Source: an uncultured delta proteobacterium (GTDB lineage: Bacteria; Myxococcota_A; Polyangia; Palsa-1104). Taken from it: a stretch of 64,000 bases of DNA. The stretch lies in assembly GCA_963785725.1 (NCBI GenBank), contig CAWAWS010000039.1:576001-640000 (forward strand), written 5' to 3'. Of this stretch, positions 4,805 through 53,256 are shown piece by piece (the first letter of the stretch is position 1; every line of letters starts with the position of its first letter). The notes below the pieces were generated by a model. The model searched no databases. It was given only the letters and a program-made list of their open reading frames with translations, and was not told the DNA's origin. The translations under genes and the position numbers were made by a program.

Positions 4805-5206
4805 GTCGGGATTGCTATACCATACGCAAATAAAAATCCAGTGAATCGCAACACAGATAAACATGAGCGCACACGAGCCAATCGACTCGGCGGCGGACAA
4901 TAGCTGCAATCGAATGATAAATATCTAAAATTGAAGTGATTTCCTCAATTGTAAAGGAATCGTTAAGAGTCAGTGGATCAATGTCACATTCGGACTGATC
5001 CCTTTGCGAGGCAGTTTCCGGGTATTCCGGGTTTCGGCCCAATGACAGCAATTGGTCGATTGAAGGCCCGGCCGGCCTTGTCTTCAATAGCGCGCCAACA
5101 GCGACGCCCCTTGTTCGCGCTCACGGGCACTGATCGCGATCGAGCGCGGCTTGGCGACGCGCGCGGCGCCGGCGAACTTTTACGGCGCAGGCGGTGTTTC
5201 GACGGT

Positions 5207-36030: not shown

Positions 36031-38472
36031 ATGGGCACGCTCTTGCAAGACTTGCGTTATGGCGCGCGGGCGCTGTGGAACAACCCGGGCTTCACGCTCG
36101 TGGCGCTCTTGGCGCTGGCGCTCGGCATCGGCGCGACGACCGCGATTTATACGGTCGTCGACGGCGTGCTGTTGCGGCCGCTGCCGTTTCCCGAGCCCGA
36201 CCAGCTCGTCGACGTCAACTCGGTGCTGCGTGACGAGACGTCGCCGGGCTCGTCGTCGTCGTTCCTCGACGCGCAAGACTACGCGACGCGCAATCGCACG
36301 CTGAGCGGCCTGGCCATCTGGACGCGCGGGCAGATCGTCCTCACCGGCGGCGCCATGCCACAGCAAGTGCAGGCGGTCGAGTCGTCGCCCAACCTGTTCA
36401 GCGTCTTGGGCATCAATCCGGCGCTCGGGCGCAGCTTCGCCGCCGACGAGGCCAAGGCCGGCAGCCACGTCGTCATCTTGTCGTACAACGTCTGGCAGCG
36501 GCGCTTCAACGGCGCGCCCGACATCGTCGGCAAGAGCATCGGCCTCGACGGCGAGCCCCACGTCGTCGTCGGCGTGGCGCCGCGCGGCTTTGCCTTCCCG
36601 CTCGACTCGACGACCGACGAGCCCGAGGTCTACCTGCCGTTTCCGCGCACGCAGCCCGAGGTCGACAGCGCCAAGTCGCGCGGCTCGCACTTTCTGACGA
36701 TCGTCGCGCGCATGAAGCCGGGCGTCAGCGTCGCGCAGTGCGCCGCCGACCTGCGCACCGTCGTCGCCGGCATGCACCGCGACCATCCCGGCGAAGACGA
36801 GGACAAGTACCTGTCGGTCAAGCTGCAGTCGCTGCACGGCTCGCTGGTGGAGACGACGCGGGCGCCGCTCATCATGCTGCTGTTGGCCGTCGCCTGCGTG
36901 CTGCTCATCGCCTGCGCCAACGTCGCCGGCCTGCTCTTGGCGCGCGCGACGGTGCGGCAGCGCGAGATCGCCATTCGCACGGCGCTCGGCGCCGGCCGCG
37001 CGCGCATCGTCCGCCAGATGCTCACCGAGAGCGCGCTGCTCGGCCTCATCGGCGGCGGCGCCGGCGTTCTCTTGGCGATGTGGCTCGTCGATCTGCTGGT
37101 GGCGATGGTGGCGACCGGCCTGCCCGCCGTGCACGACCTCGCCATCGACGGGCGCGTGCTCGGCGTGACCTTCGCGCTCTCGATCGCGACCGGCCTGGCG
37201 TTCGGGCTCGTGCCGGCGCTGCACGCGTCGCGCTCCGACTTGAACGACGCACTCAAAGAGACGGCGCGCTCGAGCGCGCACACGCGCAGCCGCCGCGCGC
37301 GCAACGCGCTGCTCATGGGCGAGATCGCGGTGGCGCTGGTGCTGCTCGTCGGCGCCGGCATGACGCTGCGCAGCTTCGCCAAGCTGCAGCAGGTCGATCC
37401 CGGCTTTCGCATCGAGGACGAAGTGGTGGCGCAGCTGCATCTGCCCGACGGTCGCTACGGCAAGGACGAAGAGGCCGACGCCTACTATCGCAAGCTCACG
37501 CAAGCGGTCAAAGGGCTGCCGGGCACGGAGTCGGTGGCCATCGGCGCGCCCATTCCCTTTACGCACACCAACTGGTCGACGACGGTCAACGTCACCGGGC
37601 AGCCGGTCTCGCCCAAGCTGACGGACTCGATCATGTCGTCGGTGAGCCCGGAGTACTTCACGGCGCTGGGAATTCCGCTGCACTCGGGCCGCTTCTTCGA
37701 CGCCAACGACGACCATCCGAAGTCGGCGCCGGTGATCATCATCTCGCAGCTGTTCGCCGACAAGCTGTTCGGCAGCGCCGAGGGCGCCATCGGCAAGCAC
37801 GTCAACATCGGGCTCGGCGACGGGCCGCAAGGCACGTCGCTCGAGATCGTCGGCGTCGTCGGCGACGTGCGCACGCGCTCGCTGGAGAAGCCGGTGGCGG
37901 CGACGATGTACGTCGCGCTCGGGCGCTGGCCCATCGGCTTCATCGGCGTGGTGGCGCATACGAAGACGCCCAAAGTGGTGATGCCGCTCTTGCGTCAGGC
38001 GATGTTGACGGTCGACAAGGACCTGCCGCCGCCGCAGCTGACGACGATGGCGGAGCTGACGGCGACCTCCTTGCAGCGTCAGAAGATGCTCATGGTGCTG
38101 CTCGGCCTCTTCGCGGCGCTGGCGCTGGCGTTGGCGTCGATCGGCATCTACGGCGTCATGTCGTACACGGTGACGCAGCGAACGCGCGAGATCGGCATTC
38201 GCGTCGCGCTCGGCGCCGGCACCAACGACGTGATGCGCATGGTGCTCGGCGAGAGCTTGCGGCTGTCGCTGGTCGCCATCGCCATCGGGCTCGGCGTGGC
38301 GCTGGCGCTCGGTCGCGTCGTGCGTAGCCTCTTGTACGGCGTCTCGAGCAGCGATCCGTTGACGCTGATTCCGGTGACGCTGGTGATCCTCGGCGTGTGC
38401 CTCGTGGCCAGCTTCCTGCCGGCGCGGCGTGCGACGAAGGTCGATCCGATGGTCGCCTTGCGCTACGAATAG
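36031..38472 (+). CDS. ABC transporter permease (duplicated MacB/FtsX, ADOP type)
   Basis: QDLRYG.R.L, LLIACANVA, REIGIRVALGA and PARRA.KVDP.VALRYE motifs. Confidence 0.92.
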   Translation: MGTLLQDLRYGARALWNNPGFTLVALLALALGIGATTAIYTVVDGVLLRPLPFPEPDQLVDVNSVLRDETSPGSSSSFLDAQDYATRNRTLSGLAIWTRGQIVLTGGAMPQQVQAVESSPNLFSVLGINPALGRSFAADEAKAGSHVVILSYNVWQRRFNGAPDIVGKSIGLDGEPHVVVGVAPRGFAFPLDSTTDEPEVYLPFPRTQPEVDSAKSRGSHFLTIVARMKPGVSVAQCAADLRTVVAGMHRDHPGEDEDKYLSVKLQSLHGSLVETTRAPLIMLLLAVACVLLIACANVAGLLLARATVRQREIAIRTALGAGRARIVRQMLTESALLGLIGGGAGVLLAMWLVDLLVAMVATGLPAVHDLAIDGRVLGVTFALSIATGLAFGLVPALHASRSDLNDALKETARSSAHTRSRRARNALLMGEIAVALVLLVGAGMTLRSFAKLQQVDPGFRIEDEVVAQLHLPDGRYGKDEEADAYYRKLTQAVKGLPGTESVAIGAPIPFTHTNWSTTVNVTGQPVSPKLTDSIMSSVSPEYFTALGIPLHSGRFFDANDDHPKSAPVIIISQLFADKLFGSAEGAIGKHVNIGLGDGPQGTSLEIVGVVGDVRTRSLEKPVAATMYVALGRWPIGFIGVVAHTKTPKVVMPLLRQAMLTVDKDLPPPQLTTMAELTATSLQRQKMLMVLLGLFAALALALASIGIYGVMSYTVTQRTREIGIRVALGAGTNDVMRMVLGESLRLSLVAIAIGLGVALALGRVVRSLLYGVSSSDPLTLIPVTLVILGVCLVASFLPARRATKVDPMVALRYE

Positions 38473-44996: not shown

Positions 44997-45052
44997 CCCA
45001 CCCGGCGATGTCCGCGGGGTGACTTTCGCGAAAGTTGCGTCACAATCGGCTC

Positions 45053-45508
45053 ATGAACAGCATGACATCCGAGACGGAGCTGCTGAGCTGCTTTCGCGAG
45101 ATCGATCGCGATGACGTCGAGCTGGCAGCCGACCTACGGTTTCCGCTGGCCATCGACGACGTGGTCGCTTGGTCGAGCGGGCCGCGCGCGTTCCTCGTGT
45201 TTCGCGAGCGACCGGGCAGCCGCGCGCGCGGCATCGTCTTCCATCGCAACGCCGGCGCGTCGCCCGACATGGCCGCGATGTGCGAGTGGTGCCACGTCGT
45301 GCGCGCGCACGGCGGCGTCAAGCTGATGAGCGTGCGCGTCGACGAGCGCAAGCGCGTCGGGCTCTACTTGTGCAGCGACGTCAGCTGCATCTCGCGCGCG
45401 CACGAGACGCCGGGGCCGGACGACGTGCCCGACCGCGCCGACGGCGGCGAGCGCGCGCGCCGCACGCTCAAGCGCATCGCCGAGTTCGCGTCGCGCCGCC
45501 TGTTTTAG
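45053..45508 (+). CDS. FBP/FusB-like EF-G-binding zinc-finger domain protein
   Basis: CEWC...GLYLCSDVSC treble-clef pattern of the FBP C-terminal domain. Confidence 0.75.
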   Translation: MNSMTSETELLSCFREIDRDDVELAADLRFPLAIDDVVAWSSGPRAFLVFRERPGSRARGIVFHRNAGASPDMAAMCEWCHVVRAHGGVKLMSVRVDERKRVGLYLCSDVSCISRAHETPGPDDVPDRADGGERARRTLKRIAEFASRRLF

Positions 45509-47284: not shown

Positions 47285-47462
47285 AGCCCGCGACGCGCCC
47301 GTAAGGCGCTTGCGCGCCTGCAAGGCACGACGTCGGAATCCGATCTCGTTTGCGAAAACGCAAGACGCCATGAAACGGCGAAGCCCCGGGCGGCCGATTC
47401 CGCCCGGGGCAGCCGACCGCGCGCGGCCTATTCCGTGCGCGGCGCATCGACGTGATCTTGGG

Positions 47463-48005
47463 TCAGCTGTCGCTGTCGAGCTCGCCGTCCCAGTAGACGG
47501 CGTTGCGCAGCCAATTGCGCCACGACTCCGGCATCTCGCGCGAGAACTGCAGCCCGGGCACGACGTTGGGCAGGCTCGTCGGCCGCGCCGGCGTCGAGCG
47601 CAGCTGCAGGCCCGCCTGACGCGGCGTGCGCCCGGCCTTGCGCTGATTGCACGGCACGCAGGCGACGACGATGTTGTCCCACGCCGTCCGTCCGCCGTGC
47701 ACGCGCGGAATGACGTGATCGTAGGTGAACTCGTCGCGCCGCACGTGCGCGCCGCAGTATTGGCAGCGCCCGCGGTCGCGCGCATAGACGTTCTGCCGCG
47801 AGAACTTGATGCCCCGCGGCCGCGGCGTCGCCTTCAACAGCCGCACGATCGACGGCATGCGCACGCGCCAATTGGGCGTGTGAATATACCGGTCGGGGTA
47901 CTCGTCGATGACCTCCACCGCGCGCCCGAGAATCCACAAAATGGCGCGCTCCCACGGCACGCGCCCGATCGGTTGATATCCCACGTTCAACACCAACGTC
48001 TGCAC
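47463..48005 (-). CDS. HNH endonuclease (McrA-like)
   Basis: RDRGRCQYCG, DHVIP..HGG and WDNIV.AC..CN.RK motifs; strong RBS (AAAGGAG) plus GTG. Confidence 0.92.
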   Translation of the reverse strand: MQTLVLNVGYQPIGRVPWERAILWILGRAVEVIDEYPDRYIHTPNWRVRMPSIVRLLKATPRPRGIKFSRQNVYARDRGRCQYCGAHVRRDEFTYDHVIPRVHGGRTAWDNIVVACVPCNQRKAGRTPRQAGLQLRSTPARPTSLPNVVPGLQFSREMPESWRNWLRNAVYWDGELDSDS

Positions 48006-48044
48006 GACAGCTCCTTTCTCCTTTGTCTAAAGGGATATTCGTAG

Positions 48045-48180
48045 TGGTGCCTCGAGCCGGGGTTCGAACCCGGCGACACCCTGAGTGTGATAACGAGCGA
48101 TCTCAACGGCCCACGCGCGGTGGACAAGGAAGGCGAATGCTCGAGCTCGATCAGGCGCTCTACCGCTGAGCTATCGAGGC
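48045..48180 (-). ncRNA. yrlA: circularly permuted YrlA-type Y RNA/tRNA hybrid ending in CCA
   Basis: Acceptor GCCUCGA/UCGAGGC-ACCA; D arm GCUC-AGCGGUA-GAGC; T arm GCCGGG-UUCGAAC-CCCGGC; stem CCUGA/UCAGG encloses ~66 nt carrying Ro-binding halves UUGUCCAC and GUGGGCCG plus UUAUC; near Ro60. Confidence 0.8.
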
Positions 48181-48189
48181 GAAAATAAT

Positions 48190-48414
48190 GCGGACGAGTG
48201 AATGAATTGGATAAGGGTTAAAGGCCTAGTACCTCACCACAGTGATTTCGACCGGTCCGCGCCGGTCTTCGACGTCCATGGCTTCGTTGCTCCTCCTCGA
48301 AATACAGACAGTATTCCTTCGTCGTCGCGCCTCGCCCTGAACGCCGAATCCTCGCCGGGGACCCATCAAAATCACTGTGGCGAGGTACTAGATGAGCCAA
48401 CGCGATCGGCCCGC
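48190..48414 (-). ncRNA. small Y RNA-like gene (copy 3), interrupted by a MITE
   Basis: After removing the MITE: GCGGGCCGAU-CGCGUUGG-CUCAUC...CCAAUUC-AUUCAC-UCGUCCGC, homologous to copies 1 and 2. Confidence 0.65.
48226..48391. mobile_element. MITE/REP-like element, 166 bp
   Basis: TIR CTAGTACCTC(A)CCACAGTGATTT...AAATCACTGTGG(C)GAGGTACTAG; near-identical inverted copy at 52043-52208. Confidence 0.88.
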
Positions 48415-48435
48415 CGTCGCAACGGAGCACAAAAT

Positions 48436-48518
48436 GCCGCGGACAAGTAATTGAGTTGGAAGCGCGAGTTTCCTCGCATCTTTTCTCGGAAGATAATCCA
48501 ACTCGGTCGGCCCGCGGC
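48436..48518 (-). ncRNA. small Y RNA-like gene (copy 2)
   Basis: GCCGCGGGCCGA...UUGUCCGCGGC lower stem with bulged C; upper stem GAGUUGGA/UCCAACUC; UUAUC; GCGAG-GAAA-CUCGC hairpin. Confidence 0.8.
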
Positions 48519-48541
48519 GGAGCTATCGAGACCCAATGAAG

Positions 48542-48618
48542 TGCGGACAAGTGAGTGAGCTGGAAAGCGAGTTTCCTCGCCATCTTTCCTAAAGATAATC
48601 CAGCTCGATCGGCCCGCA
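48542..48618 (-). ncRNA. small Y RNA-like gene (copy 1)
   Basis: UGCGGGCCGA...UUGUCCGCA; upper stem GAGCUGGA/UCCAGCUC (compensatory change versus copy 2); UUAUC; GAAA hairpin. Confidence 0.8.
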
Positions 48619-48621
48619 TCG

Positions 48622-48707
48622 AGCCTCTCGTCGGAGTCGAACCGACTTAGGGCAGGTCGCCCTCGCCGATACGAAACGGCTGCCTTCACCGGAAGGCTGC
48701 GAGAGGC
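48622..48707 (-). tRNA. atypical tRNA-like RNA (Thr-like acceptor, long variable arm, irregular anticodon loop containing CGU)
   Basis: Acceptor GCCUCUC/GAGAGGC; D arm GCCUUC/GAAGGC; variable hairpin AGGGC/GCCCU; T arm GUCGG-UUCGACU-CCGAC. Confidence 0.6.
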
Positions 48708-48733
48708 AGACCGGCCATTGCGGCCGGCGTTCG

Positions 48734-50374
48734 TTACTGCAGCCCGGAATCGAGCTGCGTCTGGGAGAAGTCGTTGATGACCGCGGGCGTGGCCGTGTCG
48801 AACCCGACCACGTCGAGCATTCCACCGTCGGACGGATCGGCGATGGTGAAGCCGTTCGACACCATGGCCACGACGACGAGCTTGGCGGCGATGCCCATGC
48901 GCTGCCGATAATCGCGCAACGCCTGCACCGGATGGACCGCGCCGCACCACGTCTCGGAGTCGGTGTAGATGACGAACGTGTCGACGGCGATCTTGCGATC
49001 GCGCGCCCACACCATCGGCAACGCGCAGTCGGTCGCGCCGAACGGCAAGCCGCTGACGCGCTTCAGCGCGTGGTCGAGTCGCCAGCGCGGCGAGATGTCG
49101 AGCTCGCTCACCGCCGGCGATGACGGCCGAAACAGCCCGTGATCGCCGGTGAAGGCCACGAACGCGTGCTGCGGCTCCGTCGCCGCCGTGACCAGCGCCA
49201 TCGCCGCCGAGGCCAGGCGCGGCGACAGACCGGGCACGCCGGCGACACTCCCCATGGCCATCGACGCCGACACGTCGAGCGCCAACAGCGTCCGCTTGCC
49301 CGTCGGCTCGACCTGCGCGAACGCCGCATGAAACGCGTCGTTCAGCGCGTCGACGATCGCCGGCACCGGCTGCCACACGTGCTGCCCGCGCACGCCGTGA
49401 CCGCTCGCGTACGTCTGCAGCGCCGACAAGATCGCGATCGGATGCACGCGCGCCGCCCGCAGCTGCCCGCCGTAGCGCAGCCGCGTCACCACCATCCGCG
49501 TCGTCGCGCCCAGCGGCGCCAGCAGCCCGACGCGCGTCATCGTCGCCAAGTTGCGCAGCATCGCCGTCAGCGGCATGTGCTCCATGAGCGCCTCCCACAC
49601 GCGCGCATCCGTCAGCCATTGCGTCGGAATGCACTCGCGCGGCAGGTTGTGGGTGCGCACCAGCCGCACGACCTCGCGCACGTCCGTCGCCCGCTTGGCC
49701 GCTTCCACGGCCGCGACGAGCGCCAAATCCTCCGGCACCTTGTCCGGCAGCTCGCCGCGCACGACCCAGCGGTACAGCATGTCGTGCTCGGCCGTCGCCG
49801 CCTTCGGATGCGCCAGCCGCAGCAGATCGCGCGTCGCCCAACCATCGCGCGACGGGTACTTCACGAGCTGATAGGCCAACGCCGATGCCGGCTTGTCGTT
49901 GAACCAGCGCTGCATCGCCGAGCGCGTGCCGCGACCCCAACCGCCGAGCGCGTCGACGTACGACGCGAAGTGCATGAGCTGCGTGCCGGTGCGGCAGATC
50001 GCCGGCATCGCCGCCAACGCGCGCCGCCGCGTGTCGAAGTCGCCGAGCTTGGCCGCCATCGCCAGCGCGAAGATCGCCGGGTCGTTCTTGGGCGCGCGGC
50101 CCGCCTCCGACACGGCGCGCACGCGGGCGATGACCCGCGCGCCGTCGAGCGTCAAGCAACGCTCGACGGCCTCGGCGTTCTCGCGCGTCAGCACGCGCTC
50201 GCGAACGTAGAAGCTGCCGCCTTCGGAGCCGAGGATCAGAAAGCGCTCGAGGCGCGCCCAATCGTCGACCGCCCACCCGTAACCGCCCGCCGAATTCGGC
50301 GTCTGCGTCGCGGAGATGGCCTGGTTCTGCGGCGTCTCCTTACGCGAGAATAGCTTTCCATAATCAATCGTCAC
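48734..50374 (-). CDS. rsr: Ro60/TROVE domain RNA-binding protein (Rsr)
   Basis: NSAGGY, RFLILGSEGG.FY, GGWGR, YQLVKY..RDGW..RDLLRL.HP, MP.TAMLRNL, ALDVSASM (vWA), YTDSETW and DVVGFD motifs; AGGAGG RBS plus GTG. Confidence 0.96.
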   Translation of the reverse strand: MTIDYGKLFSRKETPQNQAISATQTPNSAGGYGWAVDDWARLERFLILGSEGGSFYVRERVLTRENAEAVERCLTLDGARVIARVRAVSEAGRAPKNDPAIFALAMAAKLGDFDTRRRALAAMPAICRTGTQLMHFASYVDALGGWGRGTRSAMQRWFNDKPASALAYQLVKYPSRDGWATRDLLRLAHPKAATAEHDMLYRWVVRGELPDKVPEDLALVAAVEAAKRATDVREVVRLVRTHNLPRECIPTQWLTDARVWEALMEHMPLTAMLRNLATMTRVGLLAPLGATTRMVVTRLRYGGQLRAARVHPIAILSALQTYASGHGVRGQHVWQPVPAIVDALNDAFHAAFAQVEPTGKRTLLALDVSASMAMGSVAGVPGLSPRLASAAMALVTAATEPQHAFVAFTGDHGLFRPSSPAVSELDISPRWRLDHALKRVSGLPFGATDCALPMVWARDRKIAVDTFVIYTDSETWCGAVHPVQALRDYRQRMGIAAKLVVVAMVSNGFTIADPSDGGMLDVVGFDTATPAVINDFSQTQLDSGLQ

Positions 50375-50425
50375 GGCTCACCTCCTTCTCGATTCGTTGG
50401 TTTCGAATATTCGTTGTTTGCGACA

Positions 50426-50498
50426 GCGCCCCGGCAGGCGTCGAGCCAGCACTGCATCCTTCGCAGGGATGTGACCTATCCGTTAGTCGGACGGGAGC
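50426..50498 (-). tRNA. degenerate tRNA-Arg(GCG)
   Basis: Anticodon arm CAUCC-CUGCGAA-GGAUG; D arm GACU..GGUC; imperfect acceptor; T loop CUCGACG. Confidence 0.55.
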
Positions 50499-50698
50499 TT
50501 CACGATGACGGGCGTGCCCGGCTTCACCGCCGAGGTCGCGGCGTGCTCGTAAAAGCGCAGGCCGCCCCAGCGACGGCTCAGGTTGCCTTTGAGCCAGCGC
50601 AGCCACTGACGCGCGCAGGCGCCGCACAATCGCGTTCGTTCCGAATGTCGATGACCGCTGGCTTCGTGATACGGCGTTCCGCAGGCTGAGCAGCGCAT
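50483..50698 (-). CDS. 71-aa putative zinc-binding protein (CSAC...CGAC)
   Basis: AAGGAGG RBS plus ATG; two CxxC motifs; basic/aromatic C-terminal half. Confidence 0.7.
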   Translation of the reverse strand: MRCSACGTPYHEASGHRHSERTRLCGACARQWLRWLKGNLSRRWGGLRFYEHAATSAVKPGTPVIVKLPSD

Positions 50699-50783
50699 CT
50701 GCGCCTCCTTTCGTGAGCGTTGATTTCAATTGCGAATCAATCGGCTGAATATCGAATCGAATAGCGGTGATTCGATTCGGCGG

Positions 50784-50856
50784 TGCCCCAGCGAGGAGTC
50801 GAACCTCGTTCTCCGGTGCTTCAGACCGGCGCGCGGACCGCATACGCTACCGGGGC
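50784..50856 (-). tRNA. tRNA-Phe(GAA), divergent
   Basis: Acceptor GCCCCGG/CUGGGGC-A; anticodon arm CCGGU-CUGAAGC-ACCGG; T loop UUCGACU. Confidence 0.82.
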
Positions 50857-50858
50857 AT

Positions 50859-50931
50859 TGGCGCCTGCGACGGGCGTCGAACCGGTTCACTCGATCGACA
50901 ATCGAGCCGCCGGCCGTTGGCGTCCGCAAGC
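50859..50931 (-). tRNA. tRNA-Asp(GTC), divergent, CCA encoded
   Basis: Acceptor GCUUGCG/CGCAGGC-G-CCA; anticodon arm CUCGA-UUGUCGA-UCGAG. Confidence 0.75.
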
Positions 50932-50933
50932 AA

Positions 50934-51009
50934 TGGGGTGAATAGGGGGATTCGAACCCACCGTCTCGCGGTCCACGGCCGCGCGCTCTGCCATTGAGCG
51001 ATATTCACC
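50934..51009 (-). tRNA. tRNA-His(GTG), CCA encoded
   Basis: G-1:C73 pair (GGUGAAUA/UAUUCACC-CCA); anticodon arm CGCGG-CCGUGGA-CCGCG. Confidence 0.85.
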
Positions 51010-51022
51010 ATGAAATCATTCG

Positions 51023-51096
51023 TCGGCATGGCGGGCTTCGATCCCGCGACCTCTCGCTCCCGAAACGAGCGCTCTACCAGGCTGAGCTACACGCCG
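51023..51096 (-). tRNA. tRNA-Pro(CGG)
   Basis: Acceptor CGGCGUG/CAUGCCG-A; canonical D arm AGCUCAGCCUGGUAGAGC; loop UUCGGGA; T loop AUCGAAG. Confidence 0.88.
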
Positions 51097-51140
51097 AACA
51101 TTCCCGAAATACGATTCAAAACCTCGGTTAATAAAGCGAT

Positions 51141-51217
51141 TGGCGTACCCCCAAAGGAATCGAGCTTGCTTCGTCCGCTTAACAAGCGGTCGCCATCACC
51201 AGGCCGGCGCGGGGTAC
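51141..51217 (-). tRNA. tRNA-Asn(GTT), degenerate T arm (possible pseudo-tRNA), CCA encoded
   Basis: Acceptor GUACCCC/GGGGUAC-G-CCA; loop UUGUUAA; poorly paired T stem. Confidence 0.6.
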
Positions 51218-51238
51218 GAAGCGCGTGGTTACGCGCGG

Positions 51239-51311
51239 TGCGCGCCGTGGGAATCGAACCCACCTAAAGACGGATTAAGAATCCGCTGCCTCTCCAGTCG
51301 GCTTGGCGCGC
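51239..51311 (-). tRNA. tRNA-Lys(CTT), divergent
   Basis: Acceptor GCGCGCC/GGCGCGC-A; anticodon arm GCGGA-UUCUUAA-UCCGU; T arm GUGGG-UUCGAUU-CCCAC. Confidence 0.82.
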
Positions 51312-51384
51312 AGGTGCTCTCGTCGAAACGAGAGCGTTTTCATCACGTCGACTATTCGGTTTTCAATCGTTCCCGACATCAGCG

Positions 51385-51456
51385 AGCGGTCGGCGGGAAT
51401 CGAACCCGCCACTCCGGCCTGGCGAGCCGGCATGTCTCCGACAACACTTCGACCGC
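51385..51456 (-). tRNA. tRNA-Gly(GCC), divergent
   Basis: Acceptor GCGGUCG/CGACCGC-U73; anticodon arm CCGGC-UCGCCAG-GCCGG; T arm GCGGG-UUCGAUU-CCCGC. Confidence 0.82.
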
Positions 51457-51534
51457 GAGACGCACGACCGCCTTCGCCGTTTCGGATATCGAATCCGAAA
51501 GACGTGAATGAATAACGGTCCAGCGTGGTGAAAC

Positions 51535-51579
51535 CCCGAAACGGCGAAGGGCCGGAAACCTCTCGGTTTGCCGGCCCTT
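51535..51579 (-). terminator. attenuator terminator hairpin upstream of the tRNA array
   Basis: AAGGGCCGG(C)AAACC-GAGA-GGUUUCCGGCCCUU followed by a weak U-containing tail. Confidence 0.65.
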
Positions 51580-51609
51580 TAGTCGATCCCGAAACTACCC
51601 GGATTCGGA

Positions 51610-51759
51610 CTAGGGGCCGTTGGCCTTACCCTCGCGGCGCGCCGGATTGGTGGCGCAATGACCACCAAACTCGAGCACATACAGATCGCCGCCGAGGCGG
51701 GCGCTCGTCGAGCGCGGCGTCAGTCGGTCGTTCCGTAATGGTTTGATTTCGCGCGACAT
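51610..51759 (-). CDS. putative 49-aa leader peptide (MSREIKPLRN...GKANGP)
   Basis: AGGA RBS; lies between the promoter and the terminator; its last codons can pair with the terminator 5' arm. Confidence 0.6.
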   Translation of the reverse strand: MSREIKPLRNDRLTPRSTSARLGGDLYVLEFGGHCATNPARREGKANGP

Positions 51760-51778
51760 GAGAGTTCCTGTGTCCTTG

Positions 51779-51820
51779 GTGCTAAAGGCTTCGCGATTCG
51801 AAGTCAAGGAAAAATAAAAA
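51779..51820 (-). promoter_or_regulatory. sigma70-like promoter of the RNA island
   Basis: TTGACT-17 bp-TAGCAC with an upstream T-rich UP-like tract (TTTTTATTTTT) in otherwise GC-rich DNA. Confidence 0.65.
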
Positions 51821-52042: not shown

Positions 52043-52208
52043 AAAGTACCTCGCCCCCGTGATTTTGATGGGTCCCCGGCGAGGATTCGGCGTTCAGGGC
52101 AAGGCGCGACGACGAAGGAATACTGTCTGTATTTCGAGAAGGAGCAACGAAGCCATGGACGTCGAAGACCGGCGCGGACCCGTCGAAATCACTGTGGCGA
52201 GGTACTAG
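52043..52208. mobile_element. MITE/REP-like element (inverted copy of 48226-48391)
   Basis: About 8 mismatches over 166 bp versus the reverse complement of 48226-48391; left CTAG eroded. Confidence 0.88.
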
Positions 52209-52217
52209 AGGCGACGG

Positions 52218-53256
52218 TTACTTCGTGATGACGCGCGGCTCGCGGTTCTGCCAGTCGACCATCCAGCCCGGGTACTCGGCCGGCAGCGCGCTGGCGTCGT
52301 CGAGCTGCTTGAGCTGCTCGGGCGACAGCTTCACTTCCGTCGCGGCGAGGTTGTCTGCAGCTGCTCCTTGTTCTTCGCGCCGATGATGACGCTGGTGACG
52401 AACGGCCGCGTCAGCTGCCACGCCAGCGCGACGCGCGCGACCGAGATGTTCGTCGCCTTGGCCACCGCGCGCAGCGCCGCCAGCACCTTCGGCAGGCGCT
52501 CGCGATTGACCGGCGGGAAATCGAACGACGCGCGGCGCGCGCCCGTCGGACCGTCGGCGGCCGGCTTGTCGGGGTCGAACTTGCCCGACAAGAGGCCGCC
52601 GGCGAGCGGGCTCCACGGCAGGATCGCGATCGCCTGGTCCTTGGCGAGCGGCACGATCTCGCGCTCGATGTCGCGGCCGGCGATCGAGTAGTACATCTGC
52701 GCGCTCTGGAAGCGGCGCGAGGCCGTGCGCGTCGGCGTAGGCGAGCGCCTTCATCGCCAGCCACGCCGCGCAGGTTGGAGAAGCCGACGTAGCGGGCCTT
52801 GCCGCGCCGCACGACGTCGTCGAGCGCGCGCACCGTCTCCTCGATCGGCGTCTCCGGGTCGAAGCCGTGGATCTGGTAGAGGTCGACGTGATCGAGCCCG
52901 AGCCGGCGCAGGCTGCCGTCGATGCTCGCCAGGATGTGCGCGCGCGAGAGGCCGACCTGGTTCGGTCCCGGGCCCGAGCGACCGCGGACCTTGGTGGCGA
53001 CGACGACCTGCTCGCGCGGGCGCTTGAGCGACGCGAGCGCGCCGCCGAGCAGCGTCTCGGACTCGCCCTCGGAGTAGACGTCGGCGGTGTCGATGAAGTT
53101 GACGCCGGCGTCGAAGGCGCCGCCGACGATGGTCTCGACCTCCTTCTCGCCGAGCTTGCCGACGACCTCCCAGAAGCCTTTGCCGCCGAACGTCATCGTG
53201 CCGAGGCACAGCTCCGAGACGTAGAGGCCGGTCTTGCCGAGAACATGAAATTTCAT
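52218..53256 (-). pseudogene. aldo/keto reductase with three frameshifts
   Basis: [17 protein letters not shown] and HVDLYQIH motifs; homology switches frame near 52770, 52716 and 52358. Confidence 0.8.

Follow-up and report, generated by a model that had tools for sequence, protein, structure and literature searches.

This article concerns a cluster of RNA and protein genes within a window of 64,000 nucleotides, positions 576001-640000 of contig CAWAWS010000039.1 (C39), from the GC-rich genome of an uncultured delta proteobacterium (8.9 Mb, 88% complete). The cluster forms a single array on the minus strand, from 51807 down to 47463, built around a gene for Ro60, or Rsr. It starts with a promoter, an open reading frame placed upstream (uORF) and a hairpin, and continues with seven tRNA genes, a small gene for a protein with two CxxC motifs, a tRNA-Arg gene and Ro60 itself. 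On the same strand after Ro60 come an irregular tRNA, three Y-like RNAs, a tRNA-shaped Y RNA and a gene for an HNH nuclease. A preliminary description of the window had drawn these parts as one co-oriented unit, and every one of them was found in its place; from its layout, promoter to HNH, the unit is likely a single operon. It is real and conserved, and we put it forward as the candidate source of a new class of RNA and of a control circuit that is new as well.

A Y RNA in the shape of a tRNA

The last RNA of the unit (48045-48180, minus strand) had been taken for a permuted YrlA. Like YrlA it has tRNA-type D and T arms, and D and T arms in one Rsr-linked RNA are described in parts of PMC4201824 and 10.1101/312249. 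The name fails on the ends, the stem order and the Rfam score. YrlA, in the same passages, ends within its Ro stem, closes its acceptor with a loop and has neither a free CCA nor an anticodon loop; the M. smegmatis YrlA gains an open acceptor solely through RNase P cleavage. In the window RNA that order is reversed: a perfect 7-bp acceptor stem leads into ACCA, with no second half after it. The Rfam YrlA model (RF02553, cut-off 69 bits) finds no match at 48045-48180. The RNA is better read as an apparent tRNA whose acceptor stem is open and which carries an inserted, loop-closed Ro60-type arm.

Its parts stand in this order: acceptor 5' strand, D arm, Ro 3' strand, short loop, Ro 5' strand, then UUAUC, a small hairpin, T arm, acceptor 3' strand and ACCA. 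A pattern search for this arrangement returned 69 same-strand copies, spread over 45 of 212 Ro60 loci; the opposite strand had none. Missed by the pattern, the window copy was entered by hand in the alignment (A3), from which three odd hits were excluded; its 66 rows are 65 of the 68 distinct hits plus the window copy. Across these 66 copies the D stem is 98.9% paired, the T stem 100% and the middle stem 85%; all three show compensatory changes, and none of them was a criterion of selection. Helices 1 and 4, the acceptor and Ro helices, carry no independent weight as evidence, because they were criteria for entry into A3. A covariance model places the class at 70 bits or more and plain tRNAs below 60. 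It gave 112 hits of at least 65 bits; 110 of them, in 66 loci, were analysed, and 102 have the full 7-bp acceptor and 20 an encoded CCA.

Many copies also keep something like an anticodon. Of 99 distinct segments, 40 contain a 7-nt anticodon-type hairpin (shuffles, 3.9 +/- 1.9), and in most copies the Ro module is therefore an additional arm, inserted behind the D arm. For most copies we accordingly rejected a replacement of the anticodon arm by this extra one; the window copy is ambiguous on this point. Copies sharing one acceptor stem carry GTT, TGT or CTT anticodons. Such diversity, which does not track the acceptor stem, argues against ordinary decoding and weakens the case for these RNAs as normal tRNAs. 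The tRNA-shaped RNAs thus differ from YrlA in ending at the acceptor stem, in their loop-closed Ro stem and in their frequent anticodon-type arm. The window copy, which has just a 3-bp version of the small hairpin, folds poorly alone (z -1.8), and its minimum-energy fold has neither D arm nor Ro stem; since its own fold is weak, its structure rests on comparison.

The model matched eight of 21 further Ro60-positive genomes and none of 39 without a close Ro60, a contrast confounded by family and based on 58 candidates scored per genome. Copies also occur in phages, Desulfonema magnum and Picosynechococcus PCC 7002. Plasmid pAQ7 of the last (NC_010474.1; L219:4548-4805) carries two tRNA-oriented Y RNAs, scoring 80.7 and 69.2 bits, both outside the training set, and the first has a GUU anticodon arm, a G discriminator and an encoded CCA. 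A third unit at about 4828-4950 did not score over the cut-off. The YrlA predicted for PCC 7002 in the supplement of PMC4201824 (163223-163366) maps to L219:4606-4749, where it spans the 3' half of the first unit and the 5' half of the second; Rfam YrlA gives that stretch 31 bits against its cut-off of 69, with a 27-nt insert. In 40 tandem neighbours the acceptor strands form 6.55 Watson-Crick pairs within a unit and 4.85 across units. To judge from these sequences, tandem copies that shed their outer halves would yield YrlA, and a dimeric origin of YrlA, close to this idea, is suggested in part of 10.1101/312249. In Desulfonema magnum (L016:6424-7292), five tandem tRNA-shaped units, each ending in CCA, stand before Ro60, and after them comes a tandem repeat with a length of some 31 nt. 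In the last of the five the Ro module seemingly lies inside the D loop, which suggests a portable cassette.

What the tRNA-like module of bacterial Y RNAs does, and where YrlA came from, are posed as questions in passages of PMC4201824 and 10.1101/312249. RNAs that join a Ro arm to a real acceptor end, and often to an anticodon loop as well, would be a direct evolutionary intermediate. They make charging, EF-Tu binding, ribosome entry and nuclease baiting testable, and one tRNA-shaped copy sits in the genetically tractable PCC 7002.

A leader peptide with every amino acid in most relatives

At the head of the unit stands a sigma-70-type promoter (51779-51807: TTGACT at 51807-51802, a 17-nt spacer, TAGCAC at 51784-51779). 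Its layout is repeated in relatives and in a paralogous operon on another contig, C3; a consensus scanner did not call it here because the -10 element lacks its final T. Behind the promoter, still on the minus strand, lie a uORF for a peptide of 49 amino acids (51610-51759) and a terminator-like hairpin (51547-51580), predicted from sequence and nascent-RNA folds; the 3' end of the uORF, stop codon included, would serve as the antiterminator strand.

A pattern for this leader, run over 87 array loci, found the hairpin in 40. Thirteen of these had no promoter match or the wrong hairpin chosen, among them the window, which was added by hand. In all 27 loci with hairpin, promoter and uORF the stop codon falls 20-33 nt before the hairpin (0-60 nt was allowed). 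Fold and peptide statistics rest on 26 non-duplicate leaders. Nascent-RNA folds pair the end of the uORF with the 5' arm of the terminator in 26 of 26, and the energy of this antiterminator pairing lies below the shuffled mean in every one (mean z -4.4). The window keeps the promoter, the spacing and the pairing.

The peptides themselves (39-71 aa) have a median pairwise identity of 22%. Twenty-one of the 26 contain all 20 amino acids, where 0.47 would be expected from the proteome, 0.39 from shuffled bases and 1.48 from pooled composition; other frames give 1, 0 and 1 complete peptides. The leaders also draw on 2.3 more distinct codons than would be expected from the pooled usage of the set, with 21 of 26 above expectation. 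We fixed a prediction on spacing and amino-acid completeness beforehand and then examined 20 held-out loci. Nine had a leader, and in all nine the stop lies 23-30 nt before the hairpin; five of the nine peptides hold all 20 amino acids and seven at least 19. A looser pattern recovered 10 further leaders from the earlier misses, nine with the spacing and four complete, two of these four being duplicates. Across the source genome, 41 sites combine a hairpin with a uORF, and the C3 leader alone among them encodes a complete peptide; a wider regulon of such leaders in that genome was rejected, none having been found among these sites.

In the window the end of the uORF overlaps an antiterminator that competes with the terminator, as in the whiB7/wblC attenuator, for which passages of 10.1101/2023.06.02.543512 describe the same uORF, terminator, antiterminator and stall-driven read-through. 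The M. smegmatis whiB7 uORF, per the same source, contains all amino acids except cysteine and is alanine-rich. There the attenuator gates a transcription factor; leaders of the window type would gate tRNAs and a Ro60 kit, not whiB7 or wblC, and hold the full amino-acid set as a conserved trait. The leader would thus work like a whiB7 attenuator without being one and may be a gauge of decoding trouble at any codon. That would make it a compact, portable sensor for general decoding trouble on bacterial chromosomes, linking Ro60 to translation stress without RtcR. Fifty nucleotides downstream of the tail of the terminator (51536-51550), at 51471-51485, lies a perfect 15-bp complement of it, with a similar one in C3; it might lock the read-through form.

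Ro60, the HNH protein and hairpins at their start sites

Ro60 (48734-50374, minus strand; 546 aa) has the TROVE ring and vWA domain of its family (PF05731, 145 bits; PF25045, vWA_Ro60, 207 bits) and matches D. radiodurans Rsr (2nvo) over its full length at E 1.7e-123, and X. laevis Ro60 as well. Against the Rsr equivalog NF041674 of NCBIfam it scores 563 where the cut-off is 900, and so belongs to the family without being that equivalog.

The HNH gene (47463-48005, minus strand; PF01844/PF14279) encodes 180 residues and has 1060 relatives passing E 1e-30; 58 homologues from arrays keep its catalytic and zinc residues. A structure model (mean predicted local distance difference test score, pLDDT, 82) shows an N-terminal domain of four strands and one helix, for which Pfam gave no match in 54 members. 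This domain aligns with the PLMP domain in three IscB/IsrB entries at Z 6.4-6.8 and a root-mean-square deviation (rmsd) of about 2 over 49-50 residues (best, Z 6.8, rmsd 2.0, 49 residues; another, Z 6.4, rmsd 2.1), where the clear level of the tool is Z 8. From the model, a PLMP-like identity is suggestive, not clear-cut. In the VIA-align fold search the core best matched Cas9/IscB HNH domains (Z 10.2, rmsd 2.3, 79 residues). The 180 residues contain no split RuvC, and the match to IscB is limited to the HNH part. IshB is a family that joins PLMP to HNH. IscB/IsrB, as treated in parts of PMC9581776, have four N-terminal strands and one helix with an HNH domain next, which the modelled window protein resembles; unlike them the window protein has no RuvC and stands in a putative stress-operon setting, with no IS200/605 context or omega RNA seen.

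In relatives, both genes can be preceded by what look like copies of the Ro arm. A loop-closed Ro-type hairpin stands before the start codon of Ro60 in 57 of 177 cases (shuffled, 2.6), including 41 of the 53 close ones, and before that of HNH in 16 of 58 (shuffled, 1.4); RtcB has it in none of eight. The hairpins end mostly 8-22 nt ahead of the start codon, abutting the ribosome-binding site. One is present in C3 and none in the window. From this motif we infer that free Ro60 represses translation of itself and of the nuclease until Y RNAs titrate it. The hairpins thereby predict a Ro60 feedback loop and would bring a very common family of HNH proteins into the quality control of RNA. The PLMP domain of IsrB grips an RNA hairpin at its own Shine-Dalgarno sequence (PMC9581776, in part), and because it does, the HNH protein itself may bind the start-site hairpin or adjacent RNA.

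Ordinary Y RNAs and an irregular tRNA

Between Ro60 and the tRNA-shaped RNA lie Y RNA 1 (48541-48618), Y RNA 2 (48437-48518) and Y RNA 3 (48188-48416), recognized by fold and comparison. All three are on the Ro60 strand within 4 kb of Ro60, which is how PMC4201824 delimits bacterial Y RNAs. The first two fold well (z -3.3 and -4.0), and their 5' and 3' ends pair as a helix with the bulged C of the Ro type, in Y RNA 1 with UUAUC after the stem. The preliminary description overlooked that the third is split by a 164-nt miniature inverted-repeat element (48226-48389, strand unassigned) with a CTAG target duplication. With the element removed its ends pair weakly and it folds at -13.9 kcal/mol, against -34 for Y RNA 1 and -33 for Y RNA 2; it is probably weakened.

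Y RNAs in standard orientation number 249 on the Ro60 strand and two on the opposite strand, in 113 of 232 loci; earlier patterns, too strict or too loose, were replaced before counting. The GNCGAAN0-1G motif of YrlA and YrlB is absent from the window Y RNAs, which read GCCGAU or GCCGAC; GGGCCGA is one base off the vertebrate GGUCCGA, and the commonest form in relatives is GGGCCGAA (84 of 230 Y RNAs). The Rfam Deinococcus Y RNA (RF01053) had no match at E <= 1 among the 150 of 1014 genomic candidates that were scored, nor in a scan of the region. Most copies have UUAUC directly behind the stem (138 + 19 of 230). The same pentamer is shared with animal Y RNAs and nematode stem-bulge RNAs.

The tRNA-like RNA reported behind Ro60 (48622-48708, minus strand) is genuine. 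It is a conserved irregular tRNA with a 6-bp D stem, a Thr-type anticodon and a long variable arm. Rfam tRNA-Sec scores it at 44.6 bits, below the cut-off of 47; the Rfam alignment makes it an 8/4 tRNA and the minimum-energy fold a 7/5. Eight matches to it were found, each 29-120 nt after a Ro60 match, and none is on the other strand. The 8/4 tRNAs of Mukai et al. (PMC5389517), in the passages that treat them, are likewise polycistronic, with a Thr-type anticodon and U73, and differ in their G-1 and E-loop forms; that text and one supplement hold no link to TROVE.

tRNAs of the window and the CxxC gene

The eight ordinary tRNAs, all on the minus strand, are of two kinds. Five are called by both ARAGORN and Rfam: Gly(GCC) at 51384-51456, Lys(CTT) at 51237-51311, Pro(CGG) at 51022-51096, His(GTG) at 50934-51008 and Phe(GAA) at 50782-50856. 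The other three, counted as tRNAs in the preliminary description, are sub-threshold and decayed: Asn(GTT) at 51141-51217, Asp(GTC) at 50859-50931 and Arg(GCG) at 50426-50498. Their scores are at the noise level of the genome, and we accept them because they are 84%, 88% and 88% identical to well-scoring tRNAs in C3. High-scoring second copies exist elsewhere in the genome for Gly, Lys, Pro, His, Phe and Asn. None was found for Asp in the 88% complete assembly; a housekeeping tRNA-Asp candidate was rejected, its score being at noise level. With its co-oriented, supernumerary tRNAs, eight in this copy and 20 called in C3, and its patchy spread, the unit matches an L-array or trn operon in layout. 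Within the array, the CxxC gene (50483-50698, minus strand; strong Shine-Dalgarno sequence) encodes 71 residues of no known family and appears accessory; it has seven homologues of 64-94% identity, none of them at the other Ro60 loci. A GC hairpin at 47375-47409 (minus strand), whose tail is identical to that of the attenuator hairpin, closes the unit and is its putative terminator.

Conservation in relatives

Ro60 is patchy. It occurs in five of 41 relatives and in none of four genomes of the same genus; in the class it is found in 64 of 401 genomes, and within one family in 42 of 67, tallies that include two unpublished genomes. Assemblies of Polyangia and Haliangiales are the closest named records in which a related Ro60 occurs. 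Where the protein is similar, gene order is kept, in line with the preliminary description: among 40 class loci, 26 have a Ro60 of at least 55% identity, and 23 of these have at least four co-oriented tRNAs and 23 the same HNH family. The remaining 14, with Ro60 below 55%, include three with a tRNA array and two with HNH. Among loci with 5 kb on both sides, HNH accompanies 30 of 39 arrays and 7 of 63 non-array loci, and RtcB 3 of 39 and 0 of 63.

Arrays span 1 to 45 tRNAs. Six loci with one to four called tRNAs retain HNH, and the leaders scored there hold 19-20 amino acids. Because such relatives keep leader, Ro60 and HNH, spare tRNAs are not the stable core; by sequence comparison the core appears to be the leader, Ro60, Y-type RNAs and HNH. 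A protein of about 280 aa and unassigned family recurs within six arrays (L019, L062, L103, L104, L120 and L137).

A paralogous operon in the same genome

The source genome carries the unit twice. On the minus strand of contig C3, at 123655-129900 (L001:7656-13900), the same promoter, leader and hairpin precede 20 called tRNAs and some pseudo-tRNAs, Ro60, an irregular tRNA-Thr, two Y RNAs and, as the last gene, RtcB. Its leader peptide contains all 20 amino acids. The two Ro60 proteins are 71% identical, and a tree of 139 sequences (25 from phages plus every full-length non-phage protein) pairs them as sisters with support 0.99. Six tRNAs of the window match C3 genes at 84-93% identity. HNH and the tRNA-shaped RNA are in the window copy and not in C3; they are the sole tRNA-shaped Y RNA and the sole array-type HNH of the genome. 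RtcB is in C3 and not in the window. Its reported absence from the window thus stands, and the genome is not RtcB-free. A second RtcB gene lies at C39:447268-448323 (region 447268-448419), with a small overlapping ORF before it that by eye resembles ribosome-binding factor A.

Three of the eight window tRNAs are decayed, and by comparison the window unit is a lineage-specific, reduced and partly decayed duplicate of the C3 operon. The miniature element of Y RNA 3 has 12 copies with both ends in the genome, one at window 52045-52208, and a copy also sits in the C3 operon inside the D loop of a tRNA-Glu-like gene. No autonomous partner for it was found within a 4-kb spacing. A scan of 25 flanking ORFs returned no mobility or phage genes. 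A ferritin-like gene (L001:14333-14887) is divergent from the C3 operon. Cyanobacterial tRNA arrays have a linked Dps gene (PMC8421152, in part).

Relation to known systems

The nearest relatives in print are the cyanobacterial trn operons or L-arrays of Anabaena PCC 7120 (parts of PMC8421152 and PMC10272220), which are likewise long, supernumerary and patchy, have HNH and rtcB, and respond to translational stress; in Anabaena chloramphenicol induces the array together with HNH and rtcB (PMC8421152). There a DNA-binding repressor, TrcR, controls the array. Here a uORF attenuator does so by prediction, and Ro60 and Y RNAs lie inside the array. The texts of both papers lack the words TROVE and Ro60, and that of PMC8421152 also lacks 'Y RNA' and 'attenuat'. 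Archaeal tRNA clusters (PMC6333295, in part) contain a TROVE gene in 20 of 29 cases and have HNH genes nearby; the passage is a descriptive account with no leader, Y RNA or mechanism. The Rsr systems with YrlA/YrlB or Yrn1/Yrn2 (parts of PMC4201824 and 10.1101/312249) likewise place Ro-helix RNAs on the same strand beside a Ro60 orthologue, and D. radiodurans Yrn2 is co-transcribed with a tRNA.

RNA repair operons controlled by RtcR are laid out as rsr-yrlBA-rtcBA. They have rtcB in the operon, whereas the window unit is without it and has a promoter of the sigma-70 type. Stress tRNA arrays with HNH and RtcB, TROVE in tRNA clusters and uORF attenuation are each, separately, already in print. 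In our incomplete cover of the literature we found no report of tRNA-oriented Y RNAs, of an all-amino-acid leader before tRNAs or of Ro60 autoregulation.

Mechanism and alternatives

We read activity here from anatomy, conservation, composition and covariation. On the reading we favour, at odds of about two in three, the operon stays off in normal growth and is switched on by stalling of ribosomes; particles of Ro60 assembled with Y RNAs and tRNA-shaped RNAs would then handle damaged RNA with HNH, PNPase or RtcB, and spare tRNAs would refill the pool. A ribosome that reaches the stop codon would cover the antiterminator strand, and the terminator would form; one stalled earlier would leave that strand free, and transcription would continue. 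With a peptide presumably selected for every amino acid, any tRNA shortage or cleavage, or a ribosome-binding drug, could be sensed. RNase P and 3' trimming would free the tRNAs, the Y RNAs and the tRNA-shaped Y RNA, whose extra arm would bind Ro60 and show the tRNA body (elbow, open acceptor end and often an anticodon-like loop) to partners that bind tRNA, for instance nucleases, ligase or ribosomes. Free Ro60 would meanwhile silence Ro60 and HNH through the hairpins that relatives have at their ribosome-binding sites, until Y RNAs absorb it. Least certain of all, HNH, PNPase and RtcB, the last in trans from the C3 copy, may cut, degrade or religate damaged RNA. The preliminary description had proposed a stall response that supplies spare tRNAs; a ribosome-coupled attenuator is indeed fit to sense general stalling, and it is the spare tRNAs that drop out of the core.

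A bolder form of this reading is tentative, and we would put it at somewhat under even odds. The tRNA-oriented Y RNAs would be a widespread and so far overlooked class of five-armed tRNAs, matured by RNase P, CCA-tailed and perhaps charged, that can bring Ro60 together with a PLMP-HNH ribonuclease to damaged tRNAs or to ribosomes that have stalled. YrlA would descend from these unpermuted forms, some predicted YrlAs being mis-parsed tandem pairs, and the whole kit would stand under an all-amino-acid leader as a universal gauge of decoding, with Ro60 repressing its own translation and that of the nuclease by Y-RNA mimicry.

Several observations weigh against the favoured reading. In equilibrium folds the terminator usually prevails whether or not a ribosome is present (mean probability, free and ribosome-masked, 0.82 and 0.98; for the window leader 0.97 and 1.00), and the switch must therefore be kinetic, acting during transcription. 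The window leader holds 18 of the 20 amino acids, lacking Gln and Trp, and its hairpin has a poor U tail. Tails like that of the attenuator show no clear enrichment behind hairpins genome-wide (30 versus 23 of 208), and do not hold up as a terminator signature. Forty-seven of the 87 array loci gave no hairpin by pattern, including many phage or distant loci and short contigs. The window tRNA-shaped RNA, at 70.6 bits, is the weakest of the hits of at least 70 bits, even though it was in the training set; the structural neighbours of the HNH family are DNases; and RtcB stands near just three of the 39 array loci. The counts are descriptive and overstate independence, because the loci are related and many come from one family. 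With three tRNAs decayed and Y RNA 3 disrupted, the window copy may be dying.

That last point leads to the possibility that the family works as described and the C3 operon alone is functional in the source genome. The transposon remnant in Y RNA 3, the two amino acids missing from the leader, the loss of the Ro-type hairpins and a frameshifted aldo-keto reductase upstream all fit such a dead duplicate, as do the decayed tRNAs. We nevertheless consider it improbable: the Ro60 and HNH frames are intact and their catalytic motifs conserved, promoter, spacing and antiterminator pairing are retained, and the only tRNA-shaped Y RNA and array-type HNH of the genome sit in this copy. Long odds also apply to a selfish or mobile cassette, in which HNH would be a homing or IscB-like DNA nuclease spreading the array, with Ro60 and the RNAs as passengers or scaffold. 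The patchy spread of Ro60 is what one would then expect, as are the Cas9/IscB-like HNH core and the IscB/IsrB-like N-domain, and homing has been proposed for the cyanobacterial HNH (PMC8421152, in part). Such an element, however, is not obviously one held by 42 of 67 genomes of a family; no integrase, transposase or phage gene was seen in the flanking ORFs scanned, the protein has no RuvC domain, and a stress-gated leader is of no benefit to a homing enzyme.

The remaining alternative turns the unit into a decoy against toxins or phage. The tRNA-shaped Y RNAs and irregular tRNAs would bait anticodon nucleases while held by Ro60, and HNH would be a defence effector released on tRNA attack. This would account for anticodon-type loops that are kept and yet are diverse and unmatched to the acceptor stem, and for copies in phages; the leader would sense loss of tRNA here too. 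We think it unlikely, since no toxin or defence gene was found among the recurrent array genes or flanks (the PADLOC library was not scanned), and the cyanobacterial counterpart reacts to antibiotics (PMC8421152, in part).

Other features of the window

An FBP_C zinc-finger gene lies 2 kb off the operon (45035-45508) and is absent beside other Ro60 loci; the FBP_C domain is part of ribosome-rescue proteins of the FusB type. It and the CxxC gene were dropped as conserved neighbours, since neither recurs at other Ro60 loci. ARAGORN also called an undetermined tRNA at 37224-37307, within a long ORF and without Rfam support, which is probably spurious. The aldo-keto reductase gene (52218-53256) lies directly upstream of the promoter region and is broken over several frames, by frameshifts or assembly errors.

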